Positions 1 to 62,216 of a stretch of 64,000 nt of DNA are shown piece by piece. The stretch lies in the sequence record CP088595.1; one strand, 5' to 3'. The position numbers and the translations under genes were made by a program. A model generated the notes under the pieces. That model ran no database searches, was not told where the DNA came from, and saw only the letters and a list, made by a program, of their open reading frames with translations. The stretch's first letter is position 1. Each line of letters opens with the position of its first letter. Origin of the DNA: a plasmid.

Positions 1-429
1 GAAACCTTCACCCTTGACTAGGCCGGCTGCCATGCAGCGCCGCAGCACCTCATTGAATAACCAGCGGAATAGATCGCTGTCACGAAAACGCCCATGGCGA
101 TTCTTCGAGAAGGTCGAGTGATTGGGGACTTCGTCTTCCAGACCCAACCGGCAGAACCAGCGATAGGCCAGGTTCAGGTGCACCTCTTCGCACAATCGCC
201 GCTCGGAACGAATGCCATAGCAGTAGCCGACGACCAGCATGCGCACCATCAACTCCGGGTCAATCGAGGGACGCCCGATGGGGCTATAGAAATCTGCCAG
301 GTAGGCACGTAGATCACTGAGATCCAAGCACTGGTCGATGCTGCGCAGGAGATGTTGGGCCGGGACGTGATCTTCCAGATTGAACGAGTAGAACAGGCGC
401 TGCTGTCCTCCCGGTAACTGTCCCATCAT
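1..429 (-). CDS. DDE transposase, N-terminal part (partial; runs off window)
   Basis: Open minus-strand frame from ATG 429/426 to the window edge. The motifs are transposase-like as above. Confidence 0.6.
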   Translation of the reverse strand, partial: MMGQLPGGQQRLFYSFNLEDHVPAQHLLRSIDQCLDLSDLRAYLADFYSPIGRPSIDPELMVRMLVVGYCYGIRSERRLCEEVHLNLAYRWFCRLGLEDEVPNHSTFSKNRHGRFRDSDLFRWLFNEVLRRCMAAGLVKGEGF

Positions 430-545
430 GCTGTTCGCCCCCACGCTCGCTGACAAAGCAATTTTGCCAACGGCATGGGGAGGCCGCTACTTTTTCAACA
501 GAATCGGCCGCACACAGCCATTCGGCTCAACAGAACCCTGCCTTT
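1..545 (-). mobile_element. Left end of an IS element (IS5/IS1182-superfamily, ISCfr1-like); continues beyond the window start
   Basis: Minus-strand translation from ATG at 429 gives MMGQLPGGQQRLFYSFNLEDHVPAQHLL...SIDPELMVRMLVVGYCYGIRSERRLCEEVHLNLAYRWFCRLGLEDEVPNHSTFSKNRHGRFR, a typical DDE transposase N-terminus (DUF772-like) of IS5/IS1182 families. The terminus is assumed to lie around 480-545. Confidence 0.55.
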
Positions 546-1701
546 ACCCCACCAAACTCCGGAAACTCGCCCGGTAGTCCGTCGGCTTGAGATGCACATG
601 TTGGCTGAGGTCGCCGGGTAGCGTGAACAGGCGCGGACCGTCCCGAAACTGGAACACGCGATACAGATGGAATTGATCGCCCGCCTCCTTGGAGAATTCG
701 AGTTCGTTGTGGCTGACCAAGAAAGACGAGCCTACCCCGCCATTGGTGGTTTTCACCTCGATGAAGCGCTCATGGGCGTCCTCTTCGAACGACAGGATGT
801 CGAACCCCGCACCGTCTCCCTGGGTGTCGGACACCCAATCCAGCCGCTGAAAAAGCTCTGGGTGGCCGAGCTCGGTCAGGCGTTGCTGTTCGTAGCCAAT
901 CACCCACTGCTCCCCTGCCCGGCCCAGCTTGCGGTTGGCTTCATCGCGAGCGGCATAATCGAACTTTCGCGGTAGGCGTTGCCGTAGAGATGCCGGGGTA
1001 CGCACAAGCACTTCACGGGCGGGTGGTTCTACCAAAGCCGCTCGGTAGGTTTTGTCACCCGGAAGTTTTACCTCCTCCAGGGCATCGACAAGAGCGCCGA
1101 CCGTCTGCTGATGTTCCAGAACGTAGGCGTGTACGGATTTACGCAGCAGCAGTTGGCTGTTGCCGCGTGGCTTGTAGCCGTTGATATAGGGCAGGCCCAG
1201 GGCATCGAGTACGGCGCTAATGTTCTGGTGCTTGAGCTCGACTGAAGACTTGCTGCGACCGTTCAGCAGTTGGCGCAGTGCCTGGTTGTGCTCGGACTTG
1301 TGGTACGGCTCCCCAGCCGCCTCGGCACGCAGCATGTCGAAATAGTCTTCGACCGTGGCCAGGACCTCTTCTTCGGACCAGTCTTCGCCGATGCGAATGA
1401 TGCGAAACCCGAGCCGCGTCAGCGCCGGAACGACGGTCGTCTCGCCACCGGAGAAGCTGTCAGCAGTGAGCGGGCCCTGCTCGGGAAATTGCTTGCCGAA
1501 GGCCACACCGGCGATGGCCTTGGAATCGCAATCGGTGCCGGTCTTCGGATCACGTACCAGGAAGTCGCGGGACTTGCCGTAGCCGTGGCGCGCCAGGAAT
1601 TTCGTGCGGCCCAGTTGCACGAACTCATCGATGGCAGCCTGCACGGCGGCGGGGCTTCGAAGCTGGGAGAGTTGAGACACAGGGTCCTTCCTTACTGTCA
1701 T
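544..1701 (-). CDS. Hypothetical protein with a C-terminal PD-(D/E)xK (DUF3883-like) nuclease fold; the N-terminal part may be a DNA-modification reader
   Basis: The ORF track gives 544..1857. The first ~50 aa look non-coding, so I take the start at MTVRKDPVSQ (ATG 1701). The C-terminus GFDILSFEEDAHERFIEVKTT fits a D...E.K nuclease motif. The GC content is high. Confidence 0.45.
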   Translation of the reverse strand: MTVRKDPVSQLSQLRSPAAVQAAIDEFVQLGRTKFLARHGYGKSRDFLVRDPKTGTDCDSKAIAGVAFGKQFPEQGPLTADSFSGGETTVVPALTRLGFRIIRIGEDWSEEEVLATVEDYFDMLRAEAAGEPYHKSEHNQALRQLLNGRSKSSVELKHQNISAVLDALGLPYINGYKPRGNSQLLLRKSVHAYVLEHQQTVGALVDALEEVKLPGDKTYRAALVEPPAREVLVRTPASLRQRLPRKFDYAARDEANRKLGRAGEQWVIGYEQQRLTELGHPELFQRLDWVSDTQGDGAGFDILSFEEDAHERFIEVKTTNGGVGSSFLVSHNELEFSKEAGDQFHLYRVFQFRDGPRLFTLPGDLSQHVHLKPTDYRASFRSLVG

Positions 1702-1730
1702 GGTGTGCCGGGAACCGCCGAGCCACGAGA

Positions 1731-1976
1731 TTATGAGTAGCCCCTGAACAGAAACGTCACGATAAAAGCCGTGAACGCCACCAGGCCCATTAAATCCCTT
1801 GCGTATTTGCAGCCCGTGCTGTCCAAACCTGTACCAGGTCCGATCAACACGCTCCAACCATTGAGGTACGAAAACACCGCCTGACCGAACAAAAAATGCG
1901 TGATAGCCGCCGCAGCCATGACGCCGGAATCGTCAGACAGGCTGTAGCTGTTGACCATTGCCCTGTACGCCTGCAT
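1731..1976 (-). CDS. Small hydrophobic hypothetical protein (81 aa)
   Basis: Listed ORF on the same strand upstream of the nuclease-like ORF, with hydrophobic stretches. There is no other support. Confidence 0.2.
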   Translation of the reverse strand: MQAYRAMVNSYSLSDDSGVMAAAAITHFLFGQAVFSYLNGWSVLIGPGTGLDSTGCKYARDLMGLVAFTAFIVTFLFRGYS

Positions 1977-2262
1977 CTGAAATGGCTATTGCCCTGATGG
2001 GAGCCGGCTTTTCAGCCACCGACACCAGCGATGCCGTCAATATTCTTTACCCGATAACCATGACCGTACAAGCTAACAAGGCCTGGCAAGCCAGCGGACT
2101 TAAAAAGTCTTTTTTTCTACCATCCCACAAAAAAGTTCGTGGTGGAGAAAAGATAAGCTATGCAAGGCTTTAGGAGACGTGGTTTTTCAGGATGACGAAG
2201 AACGATTCGGCGCTAGGTGCAACATAGGTGCATCGCACGAGCGCTAGGAACGGCGAAAAAAG

Positions 2263-2561
2263 GCGGACGTGGCGAAATCGGTAGACGCAGCAGACTTTAA
2301 AATTGGAGTGCCCGCGGGGAAATCCGCGGAGTAGAACCGCTCAAAGTCGGGGAACGCTAACGGGCAATACCCTAAGCCAATCCCGAGCCAAGCCCCTTCG
2401 GGGGAAGGTGTAGAGACTGGACGGGCGGCGCCTAAAGCCTTCGGGCAATGGCGAAGGGACAGTCCAGACCACGAACGTCATCAGACGGCGGCGAAAGTCG
2501 AGGTGGTACGAAAATCTGCTTCTCTGTGAGAGTACGGGTTCGAGTCCCGTCGTCCGCACCA
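2263..2561 (+). tRNA. tRNA-Leu(UAA) gene interrupted by a group I intron in the anticodon loop
   Basis: 5' exon GCGGACGTGGCGAAATCGGTAGACGCAGCAGACTT (2263-2297). 3' exon AAAATCTGC-TTCTCTGTGAGAGT-ACGGGTTCGAGTCCCGT-CGTCCGC-A-CCA (2511-2561). Acceptor stem is a perfect 7 bp (GCGGACG/CGTCCGC). D-arm GCGA-AATCGGTAGA-CGC matches Leu isoacceptors. Anticodon stem GCAGA/TCTGC. The spliced loop CTTAAAA gives anticodon UAA. There is a long variable arm (type II) and a T-arm GGTTCGAGTCC. Confidence 0.65.
2298..2510 (+). ncRNA. Group I self-splicing intron (213 nt) between U34 and A35 of tRNA-Leu(UAA)
   Basis: Inserted after a U and ending in G (omega-G) directly before the 3' exon. The core segment GAAGGTGTAGAGACTGGACGG closely resembles the conserved P7/P3 region of the Azoarcus and cyanobacterial tRNA group I (IC3) introns (AAGGUGUAGAGACUAGACGG). 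The length matches that intron class. Confidence 0.55.
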
Positions 2562-2654
2562 CAAAGCCAAACATCCCTGCGATGATCGACCTCTGGGCGT
2601 TTGGTCGTGAGCCCGCCACCCTCGCGCTACGCTTTGCGCAGGCGTCGAAGGCGA

Positions 2655-3197
2655 TCAGGTGCGCCCATCGATTCCGTCGAGCACCATCGCTGCGAGTTCA
2701 TCGCTGGTGTGTGCACCACTATCGAGAACACGGGTTGTGCATGGAAGCCGTTCCCTTGCGGCCAAGCATCGGGCGACATTCGCTAATCGCCACTCTCGAA
2801 TCTCCGCATTTCGATTCGGGTCAGGATGCATGGTCTGGTTCGCGATCCGGTGACGCAATAGGTCCTCGTTGAGCGTCAGAAAGATGTGCAGCAGCTGATC
2901 GTCGATCCGCCTTACCCCGTCGAGTATCTCAGTCAGATAGTCCGGGTGCACGAGCGTCATTGGGATGATGATGTCCTGCGAGTAATTCCTTCGAATCTCC
3001 CTGACCGCCGCGATCGTAAGTCCCCTCCACAAGGGGAGATCCTGATAGTCTCCGCTCGCTGGCATGGGGACCGTTTCTTTCACCACGAACCCGATTTCCT
3101 CGGGGTCAAAGATCAGCGATTTGGAACGCCGATCGCGCAGCCGCTTAGCGAGCGTCGTCTTTCCGGCGCCGAAAGGTCCGTTGATCCAGATTATCAT
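2655..3197 (-). CDS. tmrB: TmrB-like ATP-binding protein (tunicamycin-resistance protein family), usual partner of aac(3)-II
   Basis: MIIWINGPFGAGKTTLAKRL P-loop N-terminus, 180 aa. It lies immediately downstream of aac(3)-II, as in known aacC2-tmrB modules. Confidence 0.8.
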   Translation of the reverse strand: MIIWINGPFGAGKTTLAKRLRDRRSKSLIFDPEEIGFVVKETVPMPASGDYQDLPLWRGLTIAAVREIRRNYSQDIIIPMTLVHPDYLTEILDGVRRIDDQLLHIFLTLNEDLLRHRIANQTMHPDPNRNAEIREWRLANVARCLAARERLPCTTRVLDSGAHTSDELAAMVLDGIDGRT

Positions 3198-3209
3198 TGT
3201 CGACGGCCT

Positions 3210-4070
3210 CTAACCTGAAGGCTCGCAAGAGCGCTCGACGGCCTCGTGCGGAGGCACGATCGGAGTGGTTCCGAAATGCTTCTCAAGATAGGTGACGCCG
3301 AACGTCACGATGTCCTGCGCGTCGAACAGGTAGCACTGAGCAAAGCCCACGACACCTTCTCGATGGCGACCGAGCTTCACGTAAGCATTTGCTATAGTTT
3401 CAACCGCATCCGGCTTTCCTTCGATAGCAAAGCAATCGAGAATGCCGTTTGAATCGTAATCCGATGCCGTTTTCCAGGCGACTTCACCGTCTCTTCCAAG
3501 CATCGGCATCTCATACGTCACCCACCGTTTGTTGGGGATATCGGCAACCGCCTCGGCGTAGTGCAATGCGGTAACGGAGTTTAGCGGCGCACCCAACAGC
3601 AGGGCCTTCCCGCCAAGGCGAACGAACCGCTCGACGGGCGATCCTTCCCCCAAGGCGTGACCGAGTTCGTGAGGCTCCGTCAGCGTTTCAGCCAGCGGAC
3701 CAACCGCGACCATCGATGCATCGGGGTGCGCGCTGCGCCGCGCGCCGGGGGCTTGAACCAGAAATTGATTCAGCAGGCCGAACCCACGGTAAGTCCCGGC
3801 TGTTGCGGGATCGAACGGCAGCCAGGTACGGCGGGCTTCGTCATCCAGCCGAGCGCCATTCAGAGTCTCCTCGTAGGGTGATCGGTCCCACGACGCGTAT
3901 CCCATCACAGTGCCAGTCGGCCCAACCGCGGAGCGTAACGCGGCAACGACCGTCTCCGCTCCTCCTTCGACCGGACCAATCGCTTTAAGTGAGGCATGCA
4001 CCATCAAGAGGTCACCGGTTTGGACTCCGAGTTTTTGAAGCGCCTCCGTTATTGCCTTCCGCGTATGCAT
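3210..4070 (-). CDS. aac(3)-II: Aminoglycoside 3-N-acetyltransferase AAC(3)-II (gentamicin/tobramycin resistance), 286 aa
   Basis: The protein from the internal Met is MHTRKAITEALQKLGVQTGDLLMVHASLKAIGPVEGGAETVV..., matching the AAC(3)-IIa/d/e family. The listed ORF has a spurious 22-aa N-terminal extension. ATG confirmed at 4070. Confidence 0.9.
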   Translation of the reverse strand: MHTRKAITEALQKLGVQTGDLLMVHASLKAIGPVEGGAETVVAALRSAVGPTGTVMGYASWDRSPYEETLNGARLDDEARRTWLPFDPATAGTYRGFGLLNQFLVQAPGARRSAHPDASMVAVGPLAETLTEPHELGHALGEGSPVERFVRLGGKALLLGAPLNSVTALHYAEAVADIPNKRWVTYEMPMLGRDGEVAWKTASDYDSNGILDCFAIEGKPDAVETIANAYVKLGRHREGVVGFAQCYLFDAQDIVTFGVTYLEKHFGTTPIVPPHEAVERSCEPSG

Positions 4071-4104
4071 CGCGATATCTCCTCTAAACTGCAAAACACT
4101 ATAC

Positions 4105-4142
4105 GGGGTCTGACGCTCAGTGGAACGAAAACTCACGTTAAG
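4105..4142. repeat. Tn3 38-bp terminal inverted repeat (bla-proximal end)
   Basis: Exact Tn3 IR sequence read in the window. Confidence 0.9.
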
Positions 4143-4251
4143 GGATTTTGGTCATGAGATTATCAAAAAGGATCTTCACCTAGATCCTTTTAAATTAAAA
4201 ATGAAGTTTTAAATCAATCTAAAGTATATATGAGTAAACTTGGTCTGACAG

Positions 4252-5124
<873 letters not shown>

Positions 5125-5153
5125 TCAATATTATTGAAGCATTTACCAGGGTT

Positions 5154-5182
5154 ATTGTCTCATGAGCGGATACATATTTGAA
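5154..5182 (-). promoter_or_regulatory. blaTEM P3 promoter (-35 TTCAAA, -10 GACAAT)
   Basis: Reverse complement of 5154-5182 reads TTCAAATATGTATCCGCTCATGAGACAAT, the canonical P3 arrangement upstream of bla. Confidence 0.5.
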
Positions 5183-5294
5183 TGTATTTAGAAAAATAAA
5201 CAAATAGGGGTTCCGCGCACATTTCCCCGAAAAGTGCCACCTGACGTCTAAGAAACCATTATTATCATGACATTAACCTATAAAAATAGGCGTA

Positions 5295-6015
<721 letters not shown>

Positions 6016-9000
6016 ATGCCCGTTGACTTTCTGACCACTGAGCAGACTGAAAGCTATGGCAGATTCACCGGTGAACCGGATGAGCTTCAGCTGGCACGAT
6101 ATTTTCACCTTGATGAAGCAGACAAGGAATTTATCGGAAAAAGCAGAGGTGATCACAACCGTCTGGGCATTGCCCTGCAAATTGGATGTGTCCGTTTTCT
6201 GGGCACCTTCCTCACCGATATGAATCATATTCCTTCCGGCGTCCGGCATTTTACCGCCAGACAGCTCGGGATTCGTGATATCACCGTTCTTGCAGAATAC
6301 GGTCAGAGGGAAAATACCCGCCGTGAGCATGCAGCGCTGATACGTCAGCACTATCAGTATCGTGAATTTGCCTGGCCCTGGACATTTCGCCTTACCCGTC
6401 TTTTATATACCCGGAGCTGGATAAGCAACGAACGTCCTGGCCTGCTTTTCGATCTGGCGACAGGGTGGCTTATGCAACATCGTATTATTCTCCCCGGAGC
6501 CACTACGCTGACCCGGTTGATTTCAGAGGTAAGGGAAAAGGCGACGTTGCGCCTGTGGAACAAACTGGCACTGATACCGTCAGCCGAACAGCGTTCACAG
6601 CTGGAGATGCTGCTGGGGCCAACTGATTGCAGCCGCCTGTCTTTACTGGAATCACTGAAAAAGGGCCCTGTGACCATCAGTGGTCCGGCGTTTAATGAAG
6701 CAATTGAACGCTGGAAAACTCTGAACGATTTTGGCCTGCATGCTGAAAACCTGAGTACACTCCCGGCTGTGCGCCTGAAAAATCTCGCACGTTATGCTGG
6801 TATGACTTCGGTGTTCAATATTGCCAGGATGTCACCGCAGAAAAGGATGGCGGTTCTGGTTGCCTTTGTCCTTGCATGGGAAACGCTGGCGCTGGATGAT
6901 GCATTGGACGTTCTGGACGCCATGCTGGCCGTTATCATCCGTGACGCCAGAAAGATTGGGCAGAAAAAACGGCTCCGCTCGCTGAAGGATCTGGATAAAT
7001 CTGCATTGGCGCTCGCCAGCGCATGTTCGTACCTGCTGAAAGAAGAAACACCGGACGAATCGATTCGTGCTGAGGTGTTCAGCTACATCCCAAGGCAAAA
7101 GCTGGCTGAAATCATCACGCTTGTCCGTGAAATTGCCCGGCCCTCAGACGATAATTTTCATGAAGAAATGGTGGAGCAGTACGGGCGCGTTCGTCGTTTC
7201 CTGCCCCATCTGCTGAATACCGTTAAATTTTCATCCGCACCTGCCGGGGTTACCACTCTGAATGCCTGTGACTACCTCAGCCGGGAGTTCAGCTCACGGC
7301 GGCAGTTTTTTGACGACGCACCAACGGAAATTATCAGTCGGTCATGGAAACGGCTGGTGATTAACAAGGAAAAACATATCACCCGCAGGGGATACACGCT
7401 CTGCTTTCTCAGTAAACTGCAGGATAGTCTGAGGCGGAGGGATGTCTACGTTACCGGCAGTAACCGGTGGGGAGATCCTCGTGCAAGATTACTACAGGGT
7501 GCTGACTGGCAGGCAAACCGGATTAAGGTTTATCGTTCTTTGGGGCACCCGACAGACCCGCAGGAAGCAATAAAATCTCTGGGTCATCAGCTTGATAGTC
7601 GTTACAGACAGGTTGCTGCACGTCTTTGCGAAAATGAGGCTGTCGAACTCGATGTTTCTGGCCCGAAGCCCCGGTTGACAATTTCTCCCCTCGCCAGTCT
7701 TGATGAGCCGGACAGTCTGAAACGACTGAGCAAAATGATCAGTGATCTACTCCCTCCGGTGGATTTAACGGAGTTGCTGCTCGAAATTAACGCCCATACC
7801 GGATTTGCTGATGAGTTTTTCCATGCTAGTGAAGCCAGTGCCAGAGTTGATGATCTGCCCGTCAGCATCAGCGCCGTGCTGATGGCTGAAGCCTGCAATA
7901 TCGGTCTGGAACCACTGATCAGATCAAATGTTCCTGCACTGACCCGACACCGGCTGAACTGGACAAAAGCGAACTATCTGCGGGCTGAAACTATCACCAG
8001 CGCTAATGCCAGACTGGTTGATTTTCAGGCAACGCTGCCACTGGCACAGATATGGGGTGGAGGAGAAGTGGCATCTGCAGATGGAATGCGCTTTGTTACG
8101 CCAGTCAGAACAATCAATGCCGGACCGAACCGCAAATACTTTGGTAATAACAGAGGGATCACCTGGTACAACTTTGTGTCCGATCAGTATTCCGGCTTTC
8201 ATGGCATCGTTATACCGGGGACGCTGAGGGACTCTATCTTTGTGCTGGAAGGTCTTCTGGAACAGGAGACCGGGCTGAATCCAACCGAAATTATGACCGA
8301 TACAGCAGGTGCCAGCGAACTTGTCTTTGGCCTTTTCTGGCTGCTGGGATACCAGTTTTCTCCACGCCTGGCTGATGCCGGTGCTTCGGTTTTCTGGCGA
8401 ATGGACCATGATGCCGACTATGGCGTGCTGAATGATATTGCCAGAGGGCAATCAGATCCCCGAAAAATAGTCCTTCAGTGGGACGAAATGATCCGGACCG
8501 CTGGCTCCCTGAAGCTGGGCAAAGTACAGGCTTCAGTGCTGGTCCGTTCATTGCTGAAAAGTGAACGTCCTTCCGGACTGACTCAGGCAATCATTGAAGT
8601 GGGGCGCATCAACAAAACGCTGTATCTGCTTAATTATATTGATGATGAAGATTACCGCCGGCGCATTCTGACCCAGCTTAATCGGGGAGAAAGTCGCCAT
8701 GCCGTTGCCAGAGCCATCTGTCACGGTCAAAAAGGTGAGATAAGAAAACGATATACCGACGGTCAGGAAGATCAACTGGGCGCACTGGGGCTGGTCACTA
8801 ACGCCGTCGTGTTATGGAACACTATTTATATGCAGGCAGCCCTGGATCATCTCCGGGCGCAGGGTGAAACACTGAATGATGAAGATATCGCACGCCTCTC
8901 CCCGCTTTGCCACGGACATATCAATATGCTCGGCCATTATTCCTTCACGCTGGCAGAACTGGTGACCAAAGGACATCTGAGACCATTAAAAGAGGCGTCA

Positions 9001-9021
9001 GAGGCAGAAAACGTTGCTTAA
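6016..9021 (+). CDS. tnpA: Tn3 transposase TnpA, 1001 aa
   Basis: From ATG 6016 the protein is MPVDFLTTEQTESYGRFTGEPDELQLARYFHLDEADKEFIGKSRGDHNRLGIALQIGCVRFLG... . The listed ORF start at 5857 adds a 53-aa upstream artefact. Confidence 0.95.
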   Translation: MPVDFLTTEQTESYGRFTGEPDELQLARYFHLDEADKEFIGKSRGDHNRLGIALQIGCVRFLGTFLTDMNHIPSGVRHFTARQLGIRDITVLAEYGQRENTRREHAALIRQHYQYREFAWPWTFRLTRLLYTRSWISNERPGLLFDLATGWLMQHRIILPGATTLTRLISEVREKATLRLWNKLALIPSAEQRSQLEMLLGPTDCSRLSLLESLKKGPVTISGPAFNEAIERWKTLNDFGLHAENLSTLPAVRLKNLARYAGMTSVFNIARMSPQKRMAVLVAFVLAWETLALDDALDVLDAMLAVIIRDARKIGQKKRLRSLKDLDKSALALASACSYLLKEETPDESIRAEVFSYIPRQKLAEIITLVREIARPSDDNFHEEMVEQYGRVRRFLPHLLNTVKFSSAPAGVTTLNACDYLSREFSSRRQFFDDAPTEIISRSWKRLVINKEKHITRRGYTLCFLSKLQDSLRRRDVYVTGSNRWGDPRARLLQGADWQANRIKVYRSLGHPTDPQEAIKSLGHQLDSRYRQVAARLCENEAVELDVSGPKPRLTISPLASLDEPDSLKRLSKMISDLLPPVDLTELLLEINAHTGFADEFFHASEASARVDDLPVSISAVLMAEACNIGLEPLIRSNVPALTRHRLNWTKANYLRAETITSANARLVDFQATLPLAQIWGGGEVASADGMRFVTPVRTINAGPNRKYFGNNRGITWYNFVSDQYSGFHGIVIPGTLRDSIFVLEGLLEQETGLNPTEIMTDTAGASELVFGLFWLLGYQFSPRLADAGASVFWRMDHDADYGVLNDIARGQSDPRKIVLQWDEMIRTAGSLKLGKVQASVLVRSLLKSERPSGLTQAIIEVGRINKTLYLLNYIDDEDYRRRILTQLNRGESRHAVARAICHGQKGEIRKRYTDGQEDQLGALGLVTNAVVLWNTIYMQAALDHLRAQGETLNDEDIARLSPLCHGHINMLGHYSFTLAELVTKGHLRPLKEASEAENVA

Positions 9022-9054
9022 CGTGAGTTTTCGTTCCACTGAGCGTCAGACCCC
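9017..9054. repeat. Tn3 38-bp terminal inverted repeat (tnpA-proximal end)
   Basis: Reverse complement of the IR at 4105-4142. It overlaps the last codons and stop of tnpA, as in Tn3. Confidence 0.9.
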
Positions 9055-9235
9055 GAAAACAAATGAATTAACTGCTTACGTATATGGATACATATACAGT
9101 ATTAATTTATTAAGGAGAAAATGGCATGTCAAGATTTAATGATAGTGATTATCATTAACATGAAGTGATGTTACACCGTTCAGAAAGCCTGCTGACGCTG
9201 TGGCAGCATCACAGTCTGAGTATTCTCTGGTGCAA

Positions 9236-17651: not shown

Positions 17652-17744
17652 CCCCGTTTCCAGTCTTCGCAGCCTGTACCGCCCTTCCTGCCGTTTCCGA
17701 CATTCTTTCTGTCACTACTCGCTTGTGCCATTTTTTCGCAAGCG
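17652..17744. repeat. Leader direct repeat, copy 1 (about 92 bp, about 95 percent identical to 18367-18458)
   Basis: CCCGTTTCC(A)GTCTTCGCAGCCTGTACCGCCCTTCCTGCCGTTTCCGACATTCTTTCTGTCACTACTCGCTTGTGCC(A/G)TTTTTTCGCAA. It sits upstream of the lipoprotein gene at 17803. Confidence 0.85.
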
Positions 17745-17802: not shown

Positions 17803-18354
17803 ATGAAAAAACAACCACTACTCTGGATGACGATAGCCGCCGCACTGCTGTCCGGCTGCACAGGCCACAGGGAACATCACCCGCAGGTGACATTCACGGT
17901 CGATACCGTGCGAACAGACACAACGGCCAGCAACCCAATCTGCCTGGCGGAAAAATACGGAAGCCTTCTTAATGAGCGCCATCCGGACCTGTTTGCCGGT
18001 GCTCAGGGGAGTATTTCACGCAGTGCATTTTTTAATGACAGCCTGACGCTGACACCTGAAACGCTCCACGGGATGATACAGAATACGCCCTGTGTTGAAT
18101 CACTGGTAACGTCCGTAGGTCCGGATACCTTCACTGCAGATGTCTCTCCCGGTGTCAGAATGCAGGTATCACCGGATATTCACGGTGCGCCCGGAAATAT
18201 CACTCTGCGACTCTCGACCACAGACCAGAAACGAAAACAGACTGTTGAACAAAGCATTTCTCTCAGACCGGAACAGTCCCTTGTCGTGAATGGATTCACC
18301 GGAGACGGAGCTGGCGAAAAGCGCGTCGTTCTCATCACACCTCACGTGCGTTAA
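17803..18354 (+). CDS. Lipoprotein (183 aa; lipobox LLSGC), at the traD position
   Basis: Signal peptide MKKQPLLWMTIAAALLSGCTG. AGAGG SD. Follows leader repeat copy 1. Confidence 0.5.
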   Translation: MKKQPLLWMTIAAALLSGCTGHREHHPQVTFTVDTVRTDTTASNPICLAEKYGSLLNERHPDLFAGAQGSISRSAFFNDSLTLTPETLHGMIQNTPCVESLVTSVGPDTFTADVSPGVRMQVSPDIHGAPGNITLRLSTTDQKRKQTVEQSISLRPEQSLVVNGFTGDGAGEKRVVLITPHVR

Positions 18355-18366
18355 TTCCCAACACAA

Positions 18367-18458
18367 CCCGTTTCCCGTCTTCGCAGCCTGTACCGCCCTT
18401 CCTGCCGTTTCCGACATTCTTTCTGTCACTACTCGCTTGTGCCGTTTTTTCGCAACCG
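18367..18458. repeat. Leader direct repeat, copy 2, upstream of pilI
   Basis: Same sequence as 17652-17744. Confidence 0.85.
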
Positions 18459-27475: not shown

Positions 27476-28090
27476 ATGTTAGTAGAAAATATTAATGCCA
27501 CTTTAACTGGAAATAATAAGAAGAATGAGCCTCATGATAAAGGATGGGGAATTTTGGAGCAGGGAACAATAGCGCTCGTTGTTCTTTTTGTTATAGTCGT
27601 TGTTCTGGGTAGTTTGTATGCGTTACGTACAAGAACCAATGTGGCAACTGAAACCGCAAATATACAAACAATTATCACAAGTGCCCAGAGCCTGCTAAAA
27701 GGTAGCGATGGATATACATTTACCAGCAGTGCCAAAATGACAGGTGCCCTCATTCAGATGGGGGCCGTTCCCTCTGGGATGACAGTACAGGGCGACAAAA
27801 CATCTGGTACAGCAACGCTCTATAACGCATGGGGCGGTGCTGTAACTGTTGCCCCGGCTTCAACATCAGGGTTCAACAACGGTTTTACCGTTACCTATGA
27901 TAAAGTCCCACAGGATGCCTGTATCCAGATTGCCACACGGATCAGTAAAACTGGTTTAACTAACGGCATTACCCTGAACAGTACTGCTCACAGTGATGGA
28001 AAAGTCACTACTGAAGAAGCCAGTACGCAATGCAAGGCAGATAATGGCAGCACTGGTACAAACAAACTTATCTTCACCATCAATGGTTAA
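27476..28090 (+). CDS. pilS: PilS, type IVb prepilin (major thin-pilus subunit), 204 aa
   Basis: Long leader with the cleavage motif KGWGILEQGTIALVVLFVIVVV (G|W...E5) followed by a hydrophobic helix. Confidence 0.8.
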   Translation: MLVENINATLTGNNKKNEPHDKGWGILEQGTIALVVLFVIVVVLGSLYALRTRTNVATETANIQTIITSAQSLLKGSDGYTFTSSAKMTGALIQMGAVPSGMTVQGDKTSGTATLYNAWGGAVTVAPASTSGFNNGFTVTYDKVPQDACIQIATRISKTGLTNGITLNSTAHSDGKVTTEEASTQCKADNGSTGTNKLIFTING

Positions 28091-28099
28091 GGAGTTTTA

Positions 28100-28660
28100 A
28101 TGTCAGGGGGTACAGTACCCCTCAGACTTATTTCATTAATCCTGCTTTTTTCTCTTATTCCACCCGCCCGAGCTTCATACGTAGCCCCCAAACAGATCTG
28201 GACCAACAAGTGGGACAATTGCTTTGCCGCTGCCGGCGCGCGCTATCAAATTGAACCATTATTATTGAAGGCTATTTCTGCCGGGGAATCTTCGTTGAGG
28301 CCGGGCGCAATTAATATAAATAAGGACAAAAAAACAGGTAAAGCCAGTAGCACGGATTATGGGTTGATGCAAATAAACTCAACCCATATTCCAAAGCTGA
28401 TAAATATGGGCGTAATAAAAAAGTCTGAGGATTTAATCACCAAACCATGCCTTAATATCCATATAGGAAGCTGGATACTGGCAAGACATTTTCAGATATG
28501 TGGCGTCAGCTGGAATTGCCTTGGGTCATACAATGCCGGATTCCGTAAGGACAGACATGAAACAAGAGAGCAATATGCCAATAAAATATGGAGAATTTAT
28601 CGTGACATGAAAGGGATATGTCTTCCCGGACAGGGAGGCAGGCAATGCAGACAATCGTAG
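28100..28660 (+). CDS. pilT: PilT, lytic transglycosylase (SLT domain), 186 aa
   Basis: Signal peptide. SLT motifs ISAGESSL ... DYGLMQINS ... Y. Confidence 0.7.
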   Translation: MSGGTVPLRLISLILLFSLIPPARASYVAPKQIWTNKWDNCFAAAGARYQIEPLLLKAISAGESSLRPGAININKDKKTGKASSTDYGLMQINSTHIPKLINMGVIKKSEDLITKPCLNIHIGSWILARHFQICGVSWNCLGSYNAGFRKDRHETREQYANKIWRIYRDMKGICLPGQGGRQCRQS

Positions 28661-29301
28661 GCATAAGTCTATCCCCTGTTTATATACTGCCATTGATGTT
28701 CACATTTTCCATTATTGGACGAACTCTGCTATTCAGAGTTCGTTATTTTTTATCTGATACGGGACATCTCTGGTATAAGACACACCCTGCTGTTCTGTCA
28801 GGAATATGGCTATACAGTATAGCTGTGGCGTTAATTATTTTATCATCATCACCACTGCTCTACCGTATTCATGCTGTCCTTATTCTTTCGTTCATACTGC
28901 AAATGGCGGTAACGGATGCACTGACAGGTTTATTACCAGGAACATTCACCCGGCGTTTTTTAATTGCAGGAATGCTATCACAAATCACGACTGATATATG
29001 GTGGTTCCGTACAACAGAATTTGCCACTGCTGCAATTGTCTTATTCTGCCTTCATAAATTAGTTAACCGCCATCGTCTTAATATTGGCACTGGAGACCTG
29101 TGGCTTATTGCAGGTATTACCGCATGGTCAGGGTTATATAACGCCATATGGTGTGTGTTGCTGGGCACAGGAGGATTTGTCTTATGGCATTCAACATGGT
29201 GCATAAAAGGGCATAAAGAAGGCCCTCTGGGTCCATGGCTATGTTTTGGTCATGTCCTTTTGCTGCTGGATAATCTTTATCAACCACTATGGGTAATCTG
29301 A
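28645..29301 (+). CDS. pilU: PilU, prepilin peptidase (218 aa)
   Basis: ATG 28645 preceded by GGAGG gives 218 aa. Polytopic membrane protein. Its stop overlaps the pilV ATG (ATGA). Confidence 0.65.
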
Positions 29302-30593
29302 TGAAAAAATATGACCGAGGCTGGGCATCGCTGGAAACTGGCGCGGCTTTACTGATTGTTATGCTCCTGATTGCCTGGGGAGCGGGCATATGGCAGGACT
29401 ATATTCAAACAAAAGGATGGCAAACTGAAGCACGTCTTGTCAGCAACTGGACCAGTGCGGCCCGCTCTTATATAGGGAAAAACTACACGACTCTCCAGGG
29501 CAGTAGTACCACAACAACTCCTGCCGTTATCACGACAACCATGCTGAAAAATACCGGCTTTTTGTCCAGCGGGTTTACTGAGACAAACAGCGAGGGGCAG
29601 CGGTTACAGGCATATGTGGTTCGAAACGCCCAAAACCCGGAATTACTACAGGCAATGGTTGTATCCAGTGGTGGCACACCTTATCCAGTGAAAGCACTTA
29701 TCCAGATGGCTAAGGATATTACCACTGGTCTTGGTGGATATATCCAGGACGGCAAAACAGCCACAGGTGCATTACGTTCCTGGTCAGTAGCTTTAAGTAA
29801 TTATGGTGCCAAAAGCGGTAACGGGCATATTGCCGTATTGTTATCGACAGATGAACTTAGTGGTGCAGCTGAGGACACTGATCGTCTTTACAGATTCCAG
29901 GTCAATGGTCGCCCTGACTTAAACAAAATGCACACGGCCATTGATATGGGATCAAATAACCTGAATAACGTTGGGGCAGTAAATGCCCAGACAGGTAATT
30001 TCAGCGGCAATGTGAATGGTGTAAATGGCACTTTCAGCGGTCAGGTAAAAGGCAATAGCGGAAACTTTGACGTAAATGTCACCGCTGGCGGTGATATCAG
30101 AAGTAATAATGGTTGGTTAATTACTCGTAACAGTAAAGGCTGGCTCAATGAAACTCACGGTGGCGGATTTTATATGTCCGATGGATCATGGGTTCGAAGT
30201 GTAAACAACAAGGGCATCTATACCGGCGGTCAGGTGAAAGGCGGTACTGTTCGGGCTGATGGTCGCCTTTATACTGGTGAATACTTACAACTGGAAAGAA
30301 CTGCCGTTGCTGGCGCATCATGTTCGCCTAACGGCCTTGTAGGCCGCGATAATACAGGGGCAATACTTTCGTGCCAATCCGGTACGTGGGGGACAATAGG
30401 TGGAAAACTCAAAGTTACTCAGCTTTCCACCACAGGTTATCTGGGGCAATTCGACTTCTGTGCCATTGCCAGAATGGGCAACGCAGAGGATGCCCACTAC
30501 TGCCAGGTAGTTGAGAGCCCAGCAGGTTCACGCAAATGGTACAAATACGAGCATAAGACAGGTTGTATTGCGTCGTGTGTAACGCTCAATTAA
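29301..30593 (+). CDS. pilV: PilV, thin-pilus tip adhesin with a shufflon-encoded variable C-terminus (currently an A-type C-terminus)
   Basis: Prepilin-like N-terminus [22 protein letters not shown]. The constant region ends at the first sfx repeat (…LSCQSGTWG), and the C-terminal 68 aa are encoded inside shufflon segment 1. Confidence 0.85.
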
Positions 30594-32388
30594 GTTTGAT
30601 ATCCAAATACTGAAAATACCCCGGCACCACATGATGTATTTTCTGTTGGATAGGATGTTATCTGATAGGAAGTACCTGCAGGTACAGCAAAGCTGATAAA
30701 GGCTGTTTTTCCATATGCAGGGTTATTGCTGGCATTCACGCTAATTAGCGTCCCACCAACATATCCCTGCAGTCGGGATGTATTTGCACATGCACCTCCG
30801 GCAGATCCTCCATTACCTCCAGATGCATAAATAAACAATGTACTGCCCCCTGAATTCCTCCCTGAGAATGAACCTCTATGTGAACCTAAGTTTGTGTAAG
30901 AACCATTGAGCGAACCAGAAGTCTTCCACGTACCGGATTGGCACGTAGGCCAGTGCCAATCCGGTACTTGGCGTAAAAGCAATTCTGGTAGTACGGTGAT
31001 AACTGGTCGTATAGCAAATGGTCAGCAAATACCGCTGCCAACAGGATTTTCTGCCAGTCAGTGCTCATGGAGTGTGAGCAATGCAGAAAACCCTCAAGGT
31101 TGGAAGCCGAATTACTTTGCAGGATCAGTTGCAACTTATGATGCAAATCGAATTGTTAAATGTGGTTTTTATGATGAATACAATTTCCATAAAGGGACAT
31201 TTAGAGCTGATTTAACCGGAAAATGTAGTTATGTCGTCGCGTGTCAGAACTGAGATTAAATTGCTGGCGCTGCTGGCCTACGTGCCAATCCGGTACCTGG
31301 AAATCATCATCAGCGTCGATATGGACGAATATAAAAACATTTACGTTATATCCCAAAAACACACAGGTCTTAGGGAGGTTTAAACTGTGTATTAACACCT
31401 ATCGTATTGACGGGCGTGAAATGGCAGAAACAGAAGTCGTTCCTATTGACATGCCTGACTCTAACGGCGAGATGACTTGGCAAGCCAAAAACTACACACA
31501 GTATTCGTCCTACTTTATGAAGATTACTTGCTTGAAATAGCTTATTGGCAAATGGCATATACAGTTATTGAACCATTCTGATCTTCGGTTGTATCGCACG
31601 CAGCCGACCATGAGTTATTGGCTGATGGGAATGACCTGGTAAGCCATATGTAACCAGTTCGTGAGGTGCATATTCCGCCGCCACCTGTAACACGTTTTCC
31701 AGTTGGACAGGTAGCTGTTGCTCCAGGAAAGCGCCAACCTGTGGCCTGTGCTGTAGCAATTTGAAGCTCACCAGATCCTACCTTTCTCCAGGTACCGGAT
31801 TGGCACTGGCCTACGTGCCAATCCGGTACGTGGGGGACAATAGGTGGAAAACTCAAAGTTACTCAGCTTTCCACCACAGGTTATCTGGGGCAATTCGACT
31901 TCTGTGCCATTGCCAGAATGGGCAACGCAGAGGATGCCCACTACTGCCAGGTAGTTGAGAGCCCAGCAGGTTCACGCAAATGGTACAAATACGAGCATAA
32001 GACAGGTTGTATTGCGTCGTGTGTAACGCTCAATTAAGTTTGATATCCAAATACTGAAAATACCCCGGCACCACATGATGTATTTTCTGTTGGATAGGAT
32101 GTTATCTGATAGGAAGTACCTGCAGGTACAGCAAAGCTGATAAAGGCTGTTTTTCCATATGCAGGGTTATTGCTGGCATTCACGCTAATTAGCGTCCCAC
32201 CAACATATCCCTGCAGTCGGGATGTATTTGCACATGCACCTCCGGCAGATCCTCCATTACCTCCAGATGCATAAATAAACAATGTACTGCCCCCTGAATT
32301 CCTCCCTGAGAATGAACCTCTATGTGAACCTAAGTTTGTGTAAGAACCATTGAGCGAACCAGAAGTCTTCCACGTACCGGATTGGCAC
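30371..32388. repeat. Shufflon: multiple-inversion region with seven 19-bp sfx repeats (GTGCCAATCCGGTAC[G/T/C]TGG) and alternative pilV C-terminal exons on both strands
   Basis: sfx repeats at 30371-30389 (+), 30926-30944 (-), 30953-30971 (+), 31282-31300 (+), 31788-31806 (-), 31815-31833 (+) and 32370-32388 (-). Each repeat encodes CQSGTW in frame with an ORF. Segment ORFs end at 30593 (+), 30590 (-), 31253 (+), 31540 (+), 31542 (-), 32037 (+) and 32034 (-). Confidence 0.9.
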
Positions 32389-32439
32389 GCTTGCAGAGAA
32401 TGATTGTTGGCATTATTTTTTGCCTCTTTTGAGGTTAGC

Positions 32440-33594
32440 ATGCCGTCTCCACGCATCCGTAAAATGTCCCTGTCACGCGCACTGGATAAGTACCTGAAAA
32501 CAGTTTCTGTTCACAAGAAAGGGCATCAACAGGAGTTTTACCGGAGCAATGTTATCAAGCGATATCCCATTGCTCTTCGGAATATGGACGAAATAACAAC
32601 CGTTGATATTGCTACATACAGAGACGTTCGTTTAGCAGAAATAAACCCCCGAACGGGTAAAGCCATTACAGGTAATACTGTACGTCTTGAACTCGCCCTT
32701 CTGTCATCTCTGTTCAATATTGCTCGTGTTGAATGGGGAACCTGTCGTACTAACCCGGTTGAACTGGTTCGCAAGCCGAAAGTATCCTCCGGACGAGATC
32801 GCCGGCTAACGTCTTCAGAAGAACGTCGCCTTTCTCGCTATTTCCGCGAAAAAAATCTGATGTTGTATGTCATTTTCCATCTTGCCCTTGAAACAGCCAT
32901 GCGGCAGGGCGAAATACTGGCCTTACGTTGGGAGCACATTGATTTGCGCCACGGTGTGGCTCATTTACCTGAAACCAAAAACGGTCACTCACGGGATGTT
33001 CCTCTGTCCAGACGTGCCCGTAACTTTCTTCAAATGATGCCCGTTAATCTCCACGGCAATGTTTTTGATTACACCGCATCCGGCTTTAAAAATGCCTGGA
33101 GAATAGCCACACAACGACTTCGCATCGAGGACCTGCATTTTCACGATCTACGGCATGAAGCAATAAGCCGCTTCTTCGAACTGGGTAGCCTGAATGTAAT
33201 GGAGATTGCTGCAATATCAGGACATCGTTCCATGAATATGCTGAAACGGTATACTCATCTTCGTGCATGGCAACTGGTCAGTAAGCTTGATGCCCGCCGG
33301 CGGCAGACACAAAAAGTGGCAGCATGGTTTGTGCCGTATCCTGCCCATATCACGACTATCGATGAAGAAAATGGGCAGAAAGCGCATCGTATTGAGATCG
33401 GTGATTTTGATAACCTTCACGTCACTGCCACAACAAAAGAGGAAGCAGTTCACCGCGCCAGTGAGGTTTTGTTGCGTACACTGGCCATTGCAGCACAGAA
33501 AGGCGAACGTGTCCCATCTCCCGGAGCGTTACCTGTTAACGACCCTGACTACATTATGATTTGCCCTCTGAACCCGGGCAGCACACCGCTGTAA
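32440..33594 (+). CDS. rci: Rci, shufflon-specific tyrosine recombinase (384 aa)
   Basis: ATG 32440 with GAGG SD gives 384 aa, the R64 Rci length. Integrase-family catalytic residues are present (…HDLRHEA…, LLRYTH-like [13 protein letters not shown]). It lies immediately 3' of the last sfx repeat. Confidence 0.9.
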
Positions 33595-33744
33595 ACATCA
33601 TTCAAAACACATACAGAAAGGCGAGTTACAACAACTCGCCAAACACATTCGATCTGCATGATCGAAATTATTCGTTTCACCAGAAAAAACACCGAAGATA
33701 CAATAACCACATGAGCTGAAAAGACTTTTTCAGTCGGAGGAACA

Positions 33745-34569
33745 ATGAGACTGAATACGACCGGTATTGCGGCCCGAATGATGCTCTCGCTGGACAAAAA
33801 AGCAATCGGCGAAAAACTCATCAACGGTCGTCAGATAAACCCGACACCACTGCAGGTCCGTTACCCACAAGGGGTAAGAGAAGTTCTGGGGATAATGAGC
33901 GAACAATTAGCCATATCCACCGCTGATTTAACCCGAATCCTGCTTGAGGATGCTCTTCATAATATGTTTATGCCTGCGGATAACACCACAGGAAACATAA
34001 TAAGCAGAATTGAATACATCATGCTGTCGCATGATATAAATGCGCCATTACTGGCAACATTGCTGTCGCCATGGAATATCCGCTCCACGGTTATACAGGA
34101 CCCGGCCAGACTTGCAGACTATCTTTCAGCTGACGCTCTCGAACATCTTGCTGAATGTTTTAATCTCAATCCGGACTGGCTGAATGGCCATGAAAACTAT
34201 CCGATAGCGTTGTCCGGTGAATGGCCAGATACTGCTGATAATTTCAGAATGCTTATTAATGATAGCAGCAACACTGAAGTTATTTTCTGGCATAGTTTCC
34301 CCTTCGCAGGAAACACGAAAAGAGAATATTGCGGGGTAATATTGAGACAGGAAAAAGAAATAAATGGCTCTGTAATATATCCGGCACTATCATTATCACC
34401 AACACTTCTGAACGATGAAAAAAGAAAATGGTTAACTGAATATACAACCAGGCAGAATACAACAATGTCTTTGCGACGCGTCACGTTGAGACCTGGCCTT
34501 GCCGAGAACCTTATTACAGGGCAAATACTACCTGTTAGCTTATTTAATACGTCTTTATTACCCTGGTAA
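33745..34569 (+). CDS. traE: TraE-position protein (274 aa)
   Basis: First ORF after rci. Assigned from IncI1 gene order. Confidence 0.5.
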   Translation: MRLNTTGIAARMMLSLDKKAIGEKLINGRQINPTPLQVRYPQGVREVLGIMSEQLAISTADLTRILLEDALHNMFMPADNTTGNIISRIEYIMLSHDINAPLLATLLSPWNIRSTVIQDPARLADYLSADALEHLAECFNLNPDWLNGHENYPIALSGEWPDTADNFRMLINDSSNTEVIFWHSFPFAGNTKREYCGVILRQEKEINGSVIYPALSLSPTLLNDEKRKWLTEYTTRQNTTMSLRRVTLRPGLAENLITGQILPVSLFNTSLLPW

Positions 34570-34654
34570 ATACCAGATAGTACCAAAGTAAAAAATTACG
34601 GCACATCCGTGTCATAGCGTTGTTTTGTCTAAATTCTGATAAACAGGAAATTAA

Positions 34655-35857
34655 ATGATGAAGAAAAATCATATTACCCGCACCATCATTGCATCTGCTG
34701 TATTATTTTCCTTTAACGCTGCAGCAGCGACGTCATATTTTGAAGCGCGTAACGATGCAATGGGTGGCACCGGGGTAGCATCTTCCCATTATGGTGTGGC
34801 ACCTCTGGCAAACCCGGCTTTACTGACAAAGCACAACAGCAATGATGATTTCAGCCTTCTTCTGCCGTCTGTTGGGGCACAAGTTGCTGATCCTGATGAT
34901 GTATCAAATAAAGCTGATGATGTTAAAGATGACTGGGATTTGTTTGACAGTGCTGTAGATAACCAGCATGGCGTACAACAGGCAGCGGCAAATCTTAAAC
35001 ATCGTCTGCAGGAATTCCGCAATATCAATGCAGATGCTCAGGTAGGTGTATCAGCTGTAGCAGCCATGGCAAATGACACTCTGCCGTTTGCCCTTATGGT
35101 CAAGTCTTACGGAACTGTCAGCGTAAACGGAAAAGTAAACGATGCAGACCTGGATTATCTGGACAAAGTTGCCAATGGAACAATTACCGACGTCGATAAG
35201 AATGCCCTGACCTCACGCGCATTCGGGCGTGCAGCTGTAATTACCGACGTCGGAATTTCATTTGCCAAAGAACTGGAAACGGCCGGACAAAAATGGTCTC
35301 TTGGCGTCACACCAAAATATCAGCGTGTGGACCTGTTTAACTACAACGTAACGGTTCGTGATTACGACAAAGACGATTTTGACGGTGACAAGTACCACAA
35401 CACGAAAAACGGATTCAACGCCGATATTGGTGCTTATACAGACCTGAATGACAACTGGACTGTCGGTCTTGTTGCCCAGAACATCATTCCACGCAGTATT
35501 GATACTAAAGTCGTCAATGGCTTTAAAGAAACCTTCAAAGTTCGTCCACAGGCAACCGCCGGTGTATCCTGGCATAATGACCTGTTTACCACTGCTCTTG
35601 ACGTTGATCTGACTCCTGCCAGTGGCTTCACTTCTGACAGCAAACGTCAGTTTGCAAGTGTTGGTGCTGAATTTAACGCATGGAAATGGGCGCAATTGCG
35701 TGCCGGTTATCGTCAGAACATGGCATCAAACTCCGGAAGCGCCTTCACCGCTGGCGTTGGTATCTCTCCATTTGACGTCGTACATATCGATGTTTCCGGC
35801 CTGGTAGGAACTGACCACGATTACGGTGCAATGGCACAACTTCAGTTCACTTTCTGA
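34655..35857 (+). CDS. traF: TraF-position protein (400 aa), secreted/outer-membrane beta-rich protein
   Basis: Signal peptide and a C-terminal aromatic residue (…QLQFTF). Size matches R64 TraF. Confidence 0.55.
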   Translation: MMKKNHITRTIIASAVLFSFNAAAATSYFEARNDAMGGTGVASSHYGVAPLANPALLTKHNSNDDFSLLLPSVGAQVADPDDVSNKADDVKDDWDLFDSAVDNQHGVQQAAANLKHRLQEFRNINADAQVGVSAVAAMANDTLPFALMVKSYGTVSVNGKVNDADLDYLDKVANGTITDVDKNALTSRAFGRAAVITDVGISFAKELETAGQKWSLGVTPKYQRVDLFNYNVTVRDYDKDDFDGDKYHNTKNGFNADIGAYTDLNDNWTVGLVAQNIIPRSIDTKVVNGFKETFKVRPQATAGVSWHNDLFTTALDVDLTPASGFTSDSKRQFASVGAEFNAWKWAQLRAGYRQNMASNSGSAFTAGVGISPFDVVHIDVSGLVGTDHDYGAMAQLQFTF

Positions 35858-60598: not shown

Positions 60599-60737
60599 CA
60601 TAGCCCCTCCATTGCCTTCCGGCGGTTATCGGGCTACTATAATGTTGTTGAGGCATTACAGTAGAGCCCTTGGTTGATTGATAAAAAAATCTCCAGGGGC
60701 TTTCTGCTGTATACCGTCCACAAAACGCTTTCGGCAT
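60453..60737 (-). CDS. pndC: PndC (Mok-like overlapping reading frame needed for pndA translation)
   Basis: Listed minus-strand ORF overlapping pndA in another frame, as mok overlaps hok. The true start within this frame is uncertain. Confidence 0.45.
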   Translation of the reverse strand: MPKAFCGRYTAESPWRFFYQSTKGSTVMPQQHYSSPITAGRQWRGYDATANVFNDVNRRLCDDSVFCLDGEGFALRTPAPAGKHSACGNVSLRS

Positions 60738-60796
60738 ACAGCCTCAAGCGCCCGCAGCTATTCTAACGACTTTCGTATCTGTAACAATCCTTTTAT
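60632..60796. repeat. 165-bp pnd control-region module, copy A (native, attached to pndCA)
   Basis: About 95 percent identical to 62053-62216. Contains the Sok-like promoter and terminator and, on the minus strand, the pnd mRNA promoter TTGTTA-N16-TAGAAT. Confidence 0.85.
60648..60712 (+). ncRNA. pndB: PndB (Sok-like) antisense RNA, predicted
   Basis: Plus-strand TATAAT at 60638-60643. It is followed by roughly 65 nt complementary to the pndA mRNA leader, ending in the hairpin AGCCCTTGG...CCAGGGGCT plus TTTCTGCTG. Confidence 0.45.
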
Positions 60797-62052: not shown

Positions 62053-62216
62053 GGCTACTATAATGTTGTCTAGGCATTACAGTAGAGCCCTTGGTTGATT
62101 GATAAAAAATCTCCAGGGGGCTTTCTGCTGTATACCATCCACAAAACGCTTTCGGCATACAGCCTCAAGCGTCCGCGGCTATTCTAACGACTTTCGTATC
62201 TGCAACAATCCTTTTA
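62053..62216. repeat. 165-bp pnd control-region module, copy B (orphan, adjacent to trbA)
   Basis: Retains the TATAAT and Sok-like hairpin on the plus strand and the TTGTTG-N16-TAGAAT promoter on the minus strand. No hok-like ORF follows it. Confidence 0.85.

Follow-up and report, generated by a model that had tools for sequence, protein, structure and literature searches.

Rci-catalyzed inversion between inverted 19-bp sfx repeats joins alternative 3' exons to the constant part of pilV, the gene of the thin-pilus tip adhesin. In R64, four distinct segments, A, B, C, and D, provide seven C-termini in this way. A passage in PMC12420782, citing Ishiwa and Komano (2000), states that the PilV variants recognise the lipopolysaccharide of the recipient in liquid matings. 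On natural, asymmetric sfx sites, Rci carries out inversions only, and neither excision nor insertion (PMC4176322; PMC11852207, citing Gyohda et al. 2006), so the shufflon's own chemistry cannot duplicate a segment. Misassembly of shufflons from heterogeneous isomers has been documented in long-read (PacBio-only) assemblies of IncI2 plasmids (Sekizuka et al. 2017; PMC5430464). Rci, the sfx repeats, and the pilV exons A, B, and D are textbook knowledge, the variant lacking segment C is widespread, and trouble in assembling the shufflon is also known already. The stretch of DNA analysed here, 64 kb of the plasmid record CP088595.1 (hereafter, the window), carries a shufflon in which segment A occurs twice. 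A verified segment duplication would potentially be a new element, one that lies beyond what sequence alone can establish.

Anatomy of the pilV-rci locus

In the pil operon for the thin pilus, pilV lies at the distal end, and genes for a prepilin peptidase and a lytic transglycosylase lie upstream of it. The features of the locus, in the coordinates of the window, are as follows.

28645-29301, plus strand: pilU-type prepilin peptidase gene, directly upstream of pilV (Pfam Peptidase_A24)
29289-30593, plus strand: pilV open reading frame in its present fusion (PilV-A), taken from the list of open reading frames (Pfam Shufflon_N, E = 6.5e-187)
30371-30944: segment A copy 1, between inverted sfx repeats at 30371-30389 (plus) and 30926-30944 (minus)
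30371-30593, plus strand: A exon of copy 1, 67 codons past the sfx and a stop codon, 74 amino acids from the sfx codon
30590-30944, minus strand: A' exon of copy 1, 118 amino acids, convergent with the A exon
30945-30952: inter-segment spacer GTAGGCCA, 8 bp, the same in R64 and the sister plasmids
30953-31300, plus strand: segment D, from its own sfx at 30953-30971 (plus) to the sfx shared with segment B at 31282-31300 (plus)
30953-31253, plus strand: D' exon, the sole exon of segment D, with the same peptide as R64 D'
31282-31806: segment B, with sfx repeats at 31282-31300 (plus) and 31788-31806 (minus)
31282-31540, plus strand: B exon, labelled 'PilVB C-terminal segment' in LC567081.1
31542-31806, minus strand: B' exon, within segment B
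31807-32388: extra block relative to CP056650.1, 582 bp, composed of a spacer and segment A copy 2
31807-31814: spacer TGGCCTAC, 8 bp, part of the 582-bp extra block
31815-32388: segment A copy 2, with sfx repeats at 31815-31833 (plus) and 32370-32388 (minus), identical to copy 1
32440-33594, plus strand: rci, shufflon-specific tyrosine recombinase gene (Pfam Phage_integrase, E = 6e-24)

The constant region of pilV extends to position 30370 and ends at the sfx that starts at 30371, from which segment A copy 1 supplies the C-terminal exon in frame, and the end of copy 2 is bordered by the rci-proximal unique sequence GCTTGCAG. A prepilin peptidase is annotated at the matching position of the identical CP056650.1 locus, PilV is named as a shufflon-system pilus tip adhesin in the annotations of sister records, and for the last gene, the labels given in identical sister loci are rci, integrase, or shufflon-specific DNA recombinase.

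Seven sfx cores (GTGCCAATCCGGT) were located between pilV and rci, four on the plus strand (starting at 30371, 30953, 31282, and 31815) and three on the minus strand (ending at 30944, 31806, and 32388). The seven share the 19-bp form GTGCCAATCCGGTAC[G/T/C]TGG, with the same sequences as in R64, and the one at 31282 is common to segments D and B. At every one of them (7/7), an open reading frame of 74-118 amino acids opens in the pilV frame with the motif CQSGTW. Segment A copies 1 and 2 agree at all 574 bp and also at the adjoining base on either side (30370-30945 and 31814-32389), and they form direct repeats flanking the D-B block. Chance repetition as the origin of the two copies was ruled out, because only two exact direct repeats of at least 40 nt, the A duplication being one of them, occur in the whole 64-kb window.

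These results uphold the structural part of the initial annotation, which had reported an R64-type shufflon with seven sfx repeats and two identical 574-bp copies at 30371-30944 and 31815-32388. Each copy was said to consist of an sfx, the A exon on the plus strand, the convergent 118-amino-acid A' exon on the minus strand, and an inverted sfx. One copy was described as fused to pilV and the other as abutting rci, and a D-like segment and a B/C-type segment were placed between them.

The segments were compared with those of R64 (NC_005014.1), the IncI1 archetype. Segment A differs from R64 A by 1 mismatch in 536 positions (99.8% identity), with identical A and A' peptides; the segment at 30953-31300 is identical to R64 D (310/310); and the segment at 31282-31806 is R64 B with 1 mismatch in 487 positions. 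All five C-termini encoded, A, A', D', B, and B', have the amino acid sequences of their R64 counterparts, and segment C of R64, with the C and C' termini, is absent from the window shufflon in the comparison with NC_005014.1. The 19-bp sfx (GTGCCAATCCGGTNNNTGG), the constant region of pilV, rci, and the number of seven sfx repeats are common to R64 and the window. Among the hallmarks of an R64-type shufflon that were checked, all were found in the window save the presence of four different segments, each once; unlike R64, the window has A twice and no C, and so encodes five C-termini instead of seven. Judged from these sequences, the window holds an ordinary shufflon of the R64 type, a multiple-inversion system of Rci and sfx on an IncI1 resistance plasmid.

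Sister plasmids and the two-isomer decomposition

The backbone of the plasmid is shared with many deposited relatives. Positions 4105-25000 of the window match pKHSB1 (NC_020991.1) and NZ_CP018975.1 at 100.0% identity and CP088469.1 at nearly 100.0%, with a slightly lower bit score, and positions 39001-64000 were found at 100.0% identity in one uninterrupted 25,000-base piece in at least 12 plasmids, including NZ_CP020511.1 and pEK204 (NC_013120.1). With 100.0% identity to its relatives across 45 kb, the plasmid is by this measure a member of an epidemic IncI1 lineage that comprises pEK204, pKHSB1, and plasmids like CP056650.1.

The shufflons of the sisters CP056650.1, NZ_CP020511.1, pKHSB1, and LC567081.1 each have five sfx repeats and consist of segments A, D, and B only, with no C. 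Their arrangements differ: pilV-A+D+B+-rci in CP056650.1, A+B+D- in LC567081.1, A-B+D- in pKHSB1, and D+B+A+ in NZ_CP020511.1, which corresponds to pilV-D-B-A-rci with the orientations seen in the window. That sisters with matching segments, and with matching flanks where these were checked, have been deposited in differing arrangements indicates, if indirectly, that the segments do invert and permute. Because the sister plasmids likewise lack C and carry A, D, and B only, the loss of C and the five-variant repertoire of PilV are, on this comparison, a property of the lineage and not an effect of the second A. Absence of C is common to the lineage, and the second A is unique to the window sequence.

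The window can be written as CP056650.1 plus exactly 582 bp, which consist of the spacer and A. To the left of this extra block, positions 27789-31806 agree with CP056650.1 at 4018 of 4018 bases, and to its right, positions 32389-35094 agree at 2706 of 2706. The stretch from D through B, the spacer, and A to the rci flank (30953-32470) is identical, base for base, to NZ_CP020511.1. The shufflon of the window is, in other words, the union of A-D-B, anchored at pilV, and D-B-A, anchored at rci, which overlap on the 870-bp D-B block. Since the left part is that of CP056650.1 and the right part that of NZ_CP020511.1, every junction in the window occurs in a normal isomer, and none is absent from both of the ordinary ones. 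According to a simple enumeration, the A-D-B and D-B-A isomers interconvert through inversions between inverted sfx repeats.

The proposal in the initial annotation that the second A had replaced a B/C-type segment does not survive this comparison: C is missing lineage-wide, and the 582-bp insertion is all that separates the window from CP056650.1. Because sisters with identical backbones already lack C, the second A is, as far as these alignments go, an addition of 582 bp and not a replacement of C.

Origin of the second segment A

We consider it probable, at roughly 0.6, that the second A stems from the union of two coexisting isomers in an assembly or consensus step and likely exists in no single plasmid molecule; an assembly artefact, which had been offered as an alternative in the initial annotation, is now the favoured reading. 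A mixed population would hold the pilV-A-D-B-rci and pilV-D-B-A-rci isomers, an assembler or a consensus step would align the reads from both on their common D-B block, and A would be retained on both flanks of that block to give pilV-A-D-B-A-rci. The decomposition described above is a property of the deposited sequences, and we infer that the merge took place in silico rather than in a cell.

Searches of deposited sequences bear on this question. A query with A only matched 1340 places in 1273 records, of which the best 60 were listed. Among the matches listed, a 100% identical A was found in approximately 40 deposited records, once in each, and the sole record with two places among the best 60 of 1273, NZ_CP019252.1, has one A in its shufflon (A, C, B). 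A full-length colinear match to the window was found neither in PLSDB nor among the RefSeq complete genomes of E. coli, where only multi-piece matches were obtained. In the species-representative genomes, the aac(3)-II/Tn2 junction was matched by just three contigs, all of them short and unrelated to the window. An open reading frame of 140 amino acids that is specific to A abutting rci was found in 20 contigs, and PilV-A lay 1444 bp away from it in none of the 10 places listed. The arrangement of the segments also bears on the origin: a union of isomers predicts the layout with A at both ends always, whereas a real duplication followed by continued shuffling gave this layout in 32 of 144 arrangements (~22%) in a toy enumeration, which is a weak argument because the enumeration weights all arrangements equally.

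Three observations count against an artefact. All sfx repeats and spacers in the window are canonical, with no garbled consensus, and the assembly is otherwise of high quality. The existence of segment-losing lineages (C-less, D-less, and A+B only) shows that real changes of content get fixed. In addition, an unequal homologous crossover of the same two isomers would result in an identical sequence.

The last of these brings in the principal alternative, a real duplication through unequal homologous (RecA-type) crossover between two isomers in one cell, which we regard as a possible but doubtful origin. In this scenario, pilV-A-D-B-rci and pilV-D-B-A-rci would cross over within the 870-bp D-B block, resolution of the dimer would release pilV-A-D-B-A-rci together with an A-less reciprocal product, and the former might become fixed at a bottleneck, for instance during conjugation or the purification of colonies. 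The window sequence is exactly the product so predicted, and its canonical junctions and identical copies would fit a recent event; such 574-bp direct repeats would, however, be lost again through recombination, and A would be kept at both ends only in the minority of arrangements counted above if shuffling continued. Inversion can produce both parental isomers, which are present in sister plasmids, and the class of the reciprocal product, the segment-loss variants, is common in deposited IncI1 plasmids, but the listed records with an identical A are uniformly single-copy, and our literature search found no published, verified duplication of a shufflon segment. The rest of the window matches the sisters error-free, although assembly errors at the shufflon locus in particular are documented (PMC5430464) and are seen in NZ_CP134392.1. 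Identical direct repeats around D-B, which has the same orientation in both parental isomers, are predicted by the crossover and by the artefact alike and do not discriminate between the two.

Conversion of C into A and a fusion mediated by Rci are, even when taken jointly, very unlikely to account for the second A. A true replacement, in which the C segment of a four-segment, R64-like ancestor was turned into a second A, for instance through gene conversion via the flanking sfx and spacer, would explain why the formal architecture is that of R64 (seven sfx repeats, two spacers, four segments) and why A stands at a possible C-type position. It is nevertheless highly improbable, as the closest relatives, identical in every stretch compared, have five sfx repeats and no C, parsimony favours a C-less state first and a gain of 582 bp thereafter, and the homology available for conversion is just ~27 bp per side. 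Least credible of all is a duplication made by Rci through intermolecular sfx x sfx recombination of two plasmid copies with resolution elsewhere: the breakpoints of the extra block do fall on sfx sites, but this is uninformative because segment borders are sfx and such breakpoints are expected under the other scenarios too, whereas inversion is the only reaction reported for wild-type Rci on asymmetric sfx, excision having been seen only at sites made artificially symmetric or inside eukaryotic cells (PMC4176322; PMC11852207), and integration would be equally disfavoured by reversibility.

PilV repertoire and comparison with other shufflons

A drop from seven to about five PilV variants had been attributed to the second A; five C-termini do remain, but the drop is due to the loss of C in the lineage and not to the duplication. 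An altered recipient specificity had been expected as well; if the structure were real, the repertoire would be the same as in the sisters, and in a toy model the share of arrangements in which A or A' is fused to pilV rises from 38% to 56% with the second A. The duplication would neither add nor remove a PilV variant, and at most shift isomer frequencies.

A real duplication would not change the choice of recipients in liquid matings but would modestly bias it towards those that PilV-A and PilV-A' recognise. It would also offer a small, concrete case, in a programmed-inversion cassette, of a segment copy number that can expand as well as contract. Misalignment of isomers would then be a mechanism for the widespread segment losses among IncI plasmids, and the inversion system would be tied to homologous recombination, through which adhesin exons could be gained as well as lost. 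If the second A is instead an artefact, as we think probable, the case is a caution only: the shufflon content of deposited "complete" IncI plasmids cannot simply be trusted, and in comparisons or typing the shufflon should be masked or else verified with spanning reads.

Other anomalies were found when the length from pilV to rci was screened in approximately 100 listed IncI1 records. Over-long shufflons in NZ_CP109876.1, CP057294.1, and NZ_CP032524.1 result from IS insertions, and, among the same records, duplicated segments are present in two other deposited complete IncI1 plasmids, cleanly in NZ_CP019996.1 and in garbled form in NZ_CP134392.1. With ten sfx repeats, the shufflon of NZ_CP019996.1 has the order pilV-A-C-D-B-D(inverted)-C-rci and is the exact union of A-C-D-B and A-B-D'-C on a common B. 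That of NZ_CP134392.1 (pMTY10828_IncI1-I), in which B is present twice together with a partial third B, the pilV-proximal sfx is a mosaic, and pilV is annotated as broken, is plainly a consensus artefact. Segment-loss variants (C-less, D-less, or with A+B only) are often met with in deposited IncI1 plasmids, and some of them may be assembly collapses themselves.

The misassembled IncI2 shufflons (PMC5430464) and NZ_CP134392.1 exemplify wrong segment content in long-read assemblies of mixed isomers, but in them sequence is missing, foreign, or garbled, and the window is free of such signs. The plasmid pSAN1-08-1092 (NZ_CP019996.1), an IncI plasmid of Salmonella Anatum, has the same kind of clean layout as a union of two isomers, although C and D are doubled there and not A, and it belongs to another lineage with a four-segment background. 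Closest of all is the three-segment, five-sfx shufflon of the window's own lineage, whose backbone and segments A, D, and B match those of the window exactly where compared and whose repertoire of A, A', B, B', and D' is the same, the window differing from it by one extra spacer and A, 582 bp in total, beside rci.

Resistance region and direct repeats outside the shufflon

Upstream of the IncI1 backbone, the first 9055 nucleotides of the window (1-9055) form a resistance region, in which the following features are found.

3210-4136, minus strand: AAC(3)-II aminoglycoside acetyltransferase gene
4252-5112, minus strand: blaTEM
5857-9021, plus strand: Tn3-family transposase gene
4104-4142 and 9017-9055: 39-nt terminal inverted repeats

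Because the identity between the window and pKHSB1, a sister plasmid of the same epidemic IncI1 lineage, starts only from position 4105 in the sequence comparison, the aac(3)-II side of this region is an accessory context that differs from that of pKHSB1.

The window also contains shorter exact direct repeats. The copies of a 67-nt repeat (17663-17729 and 18377-18443) lie on both sides of a 183-aa ORF (17803-18354), for which no NCBIfam match was found. In the transfer region, a 38-nt repeat (60651-60688 and 62072-62109) and a 34-nt repeat (60717-60750 and 62138-62171) are present, and the spacing between the copies is 1421 bp for both.

Shufflons with duplicated segments

The shufflon of pSAN1-08-1092 (NZ_CP019996.1; positions 1383-4149 of the fetched locus L008), which was deposited as a complete plasmid, has ten of the 19-bp sfx repeats and two copies each of segments C and D, in the order pilV-A-C-D-B-D(inverted)-C-rci. 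In this layout, two isomers, i.e., two arrangements of the segments, are cleanly united. The shufflon of pMTY10828_IncI1-I (NZ_CP134392.1; L009 1872-4595) is garbled: past the sfx adjoining pilV, the sequence is a mosaic that resembles D in some parts and B in others, segment B occurs twice together with a partial inverted copy of 216 bp, and the annotation of pilV consists of two pseudogene fragments. This shufflon resembles a consensus built from mixed isomers.

Shufflons with fewer or shortened segments

Many draft and metagenome contigs (L013-L015 and L017-L020) carry a single-segment shufflon, in which rci directly follows pilV-A; either the region has collapsed in short-read assembly or the one-segment shufflons are genuine. 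The IncI-gamma/K1 plasmid NZ_CP019252.1 (L007 15605-17212) possesses segments A, C, and B without D, bounded by six sfx, and the segment A query gave a second match in this 123-kb record at a place other than the shufflon. In pKHSB1 (NC_020991.1; L006 3461-3968), the B segment measures 508 bp from sfx to sfx, versus 525 bp in the window, with 450 of 487 internal bases aligning, which suggests that this sister plasmid, otherwise identical, has a small deletion here or was assembled differently at this place.
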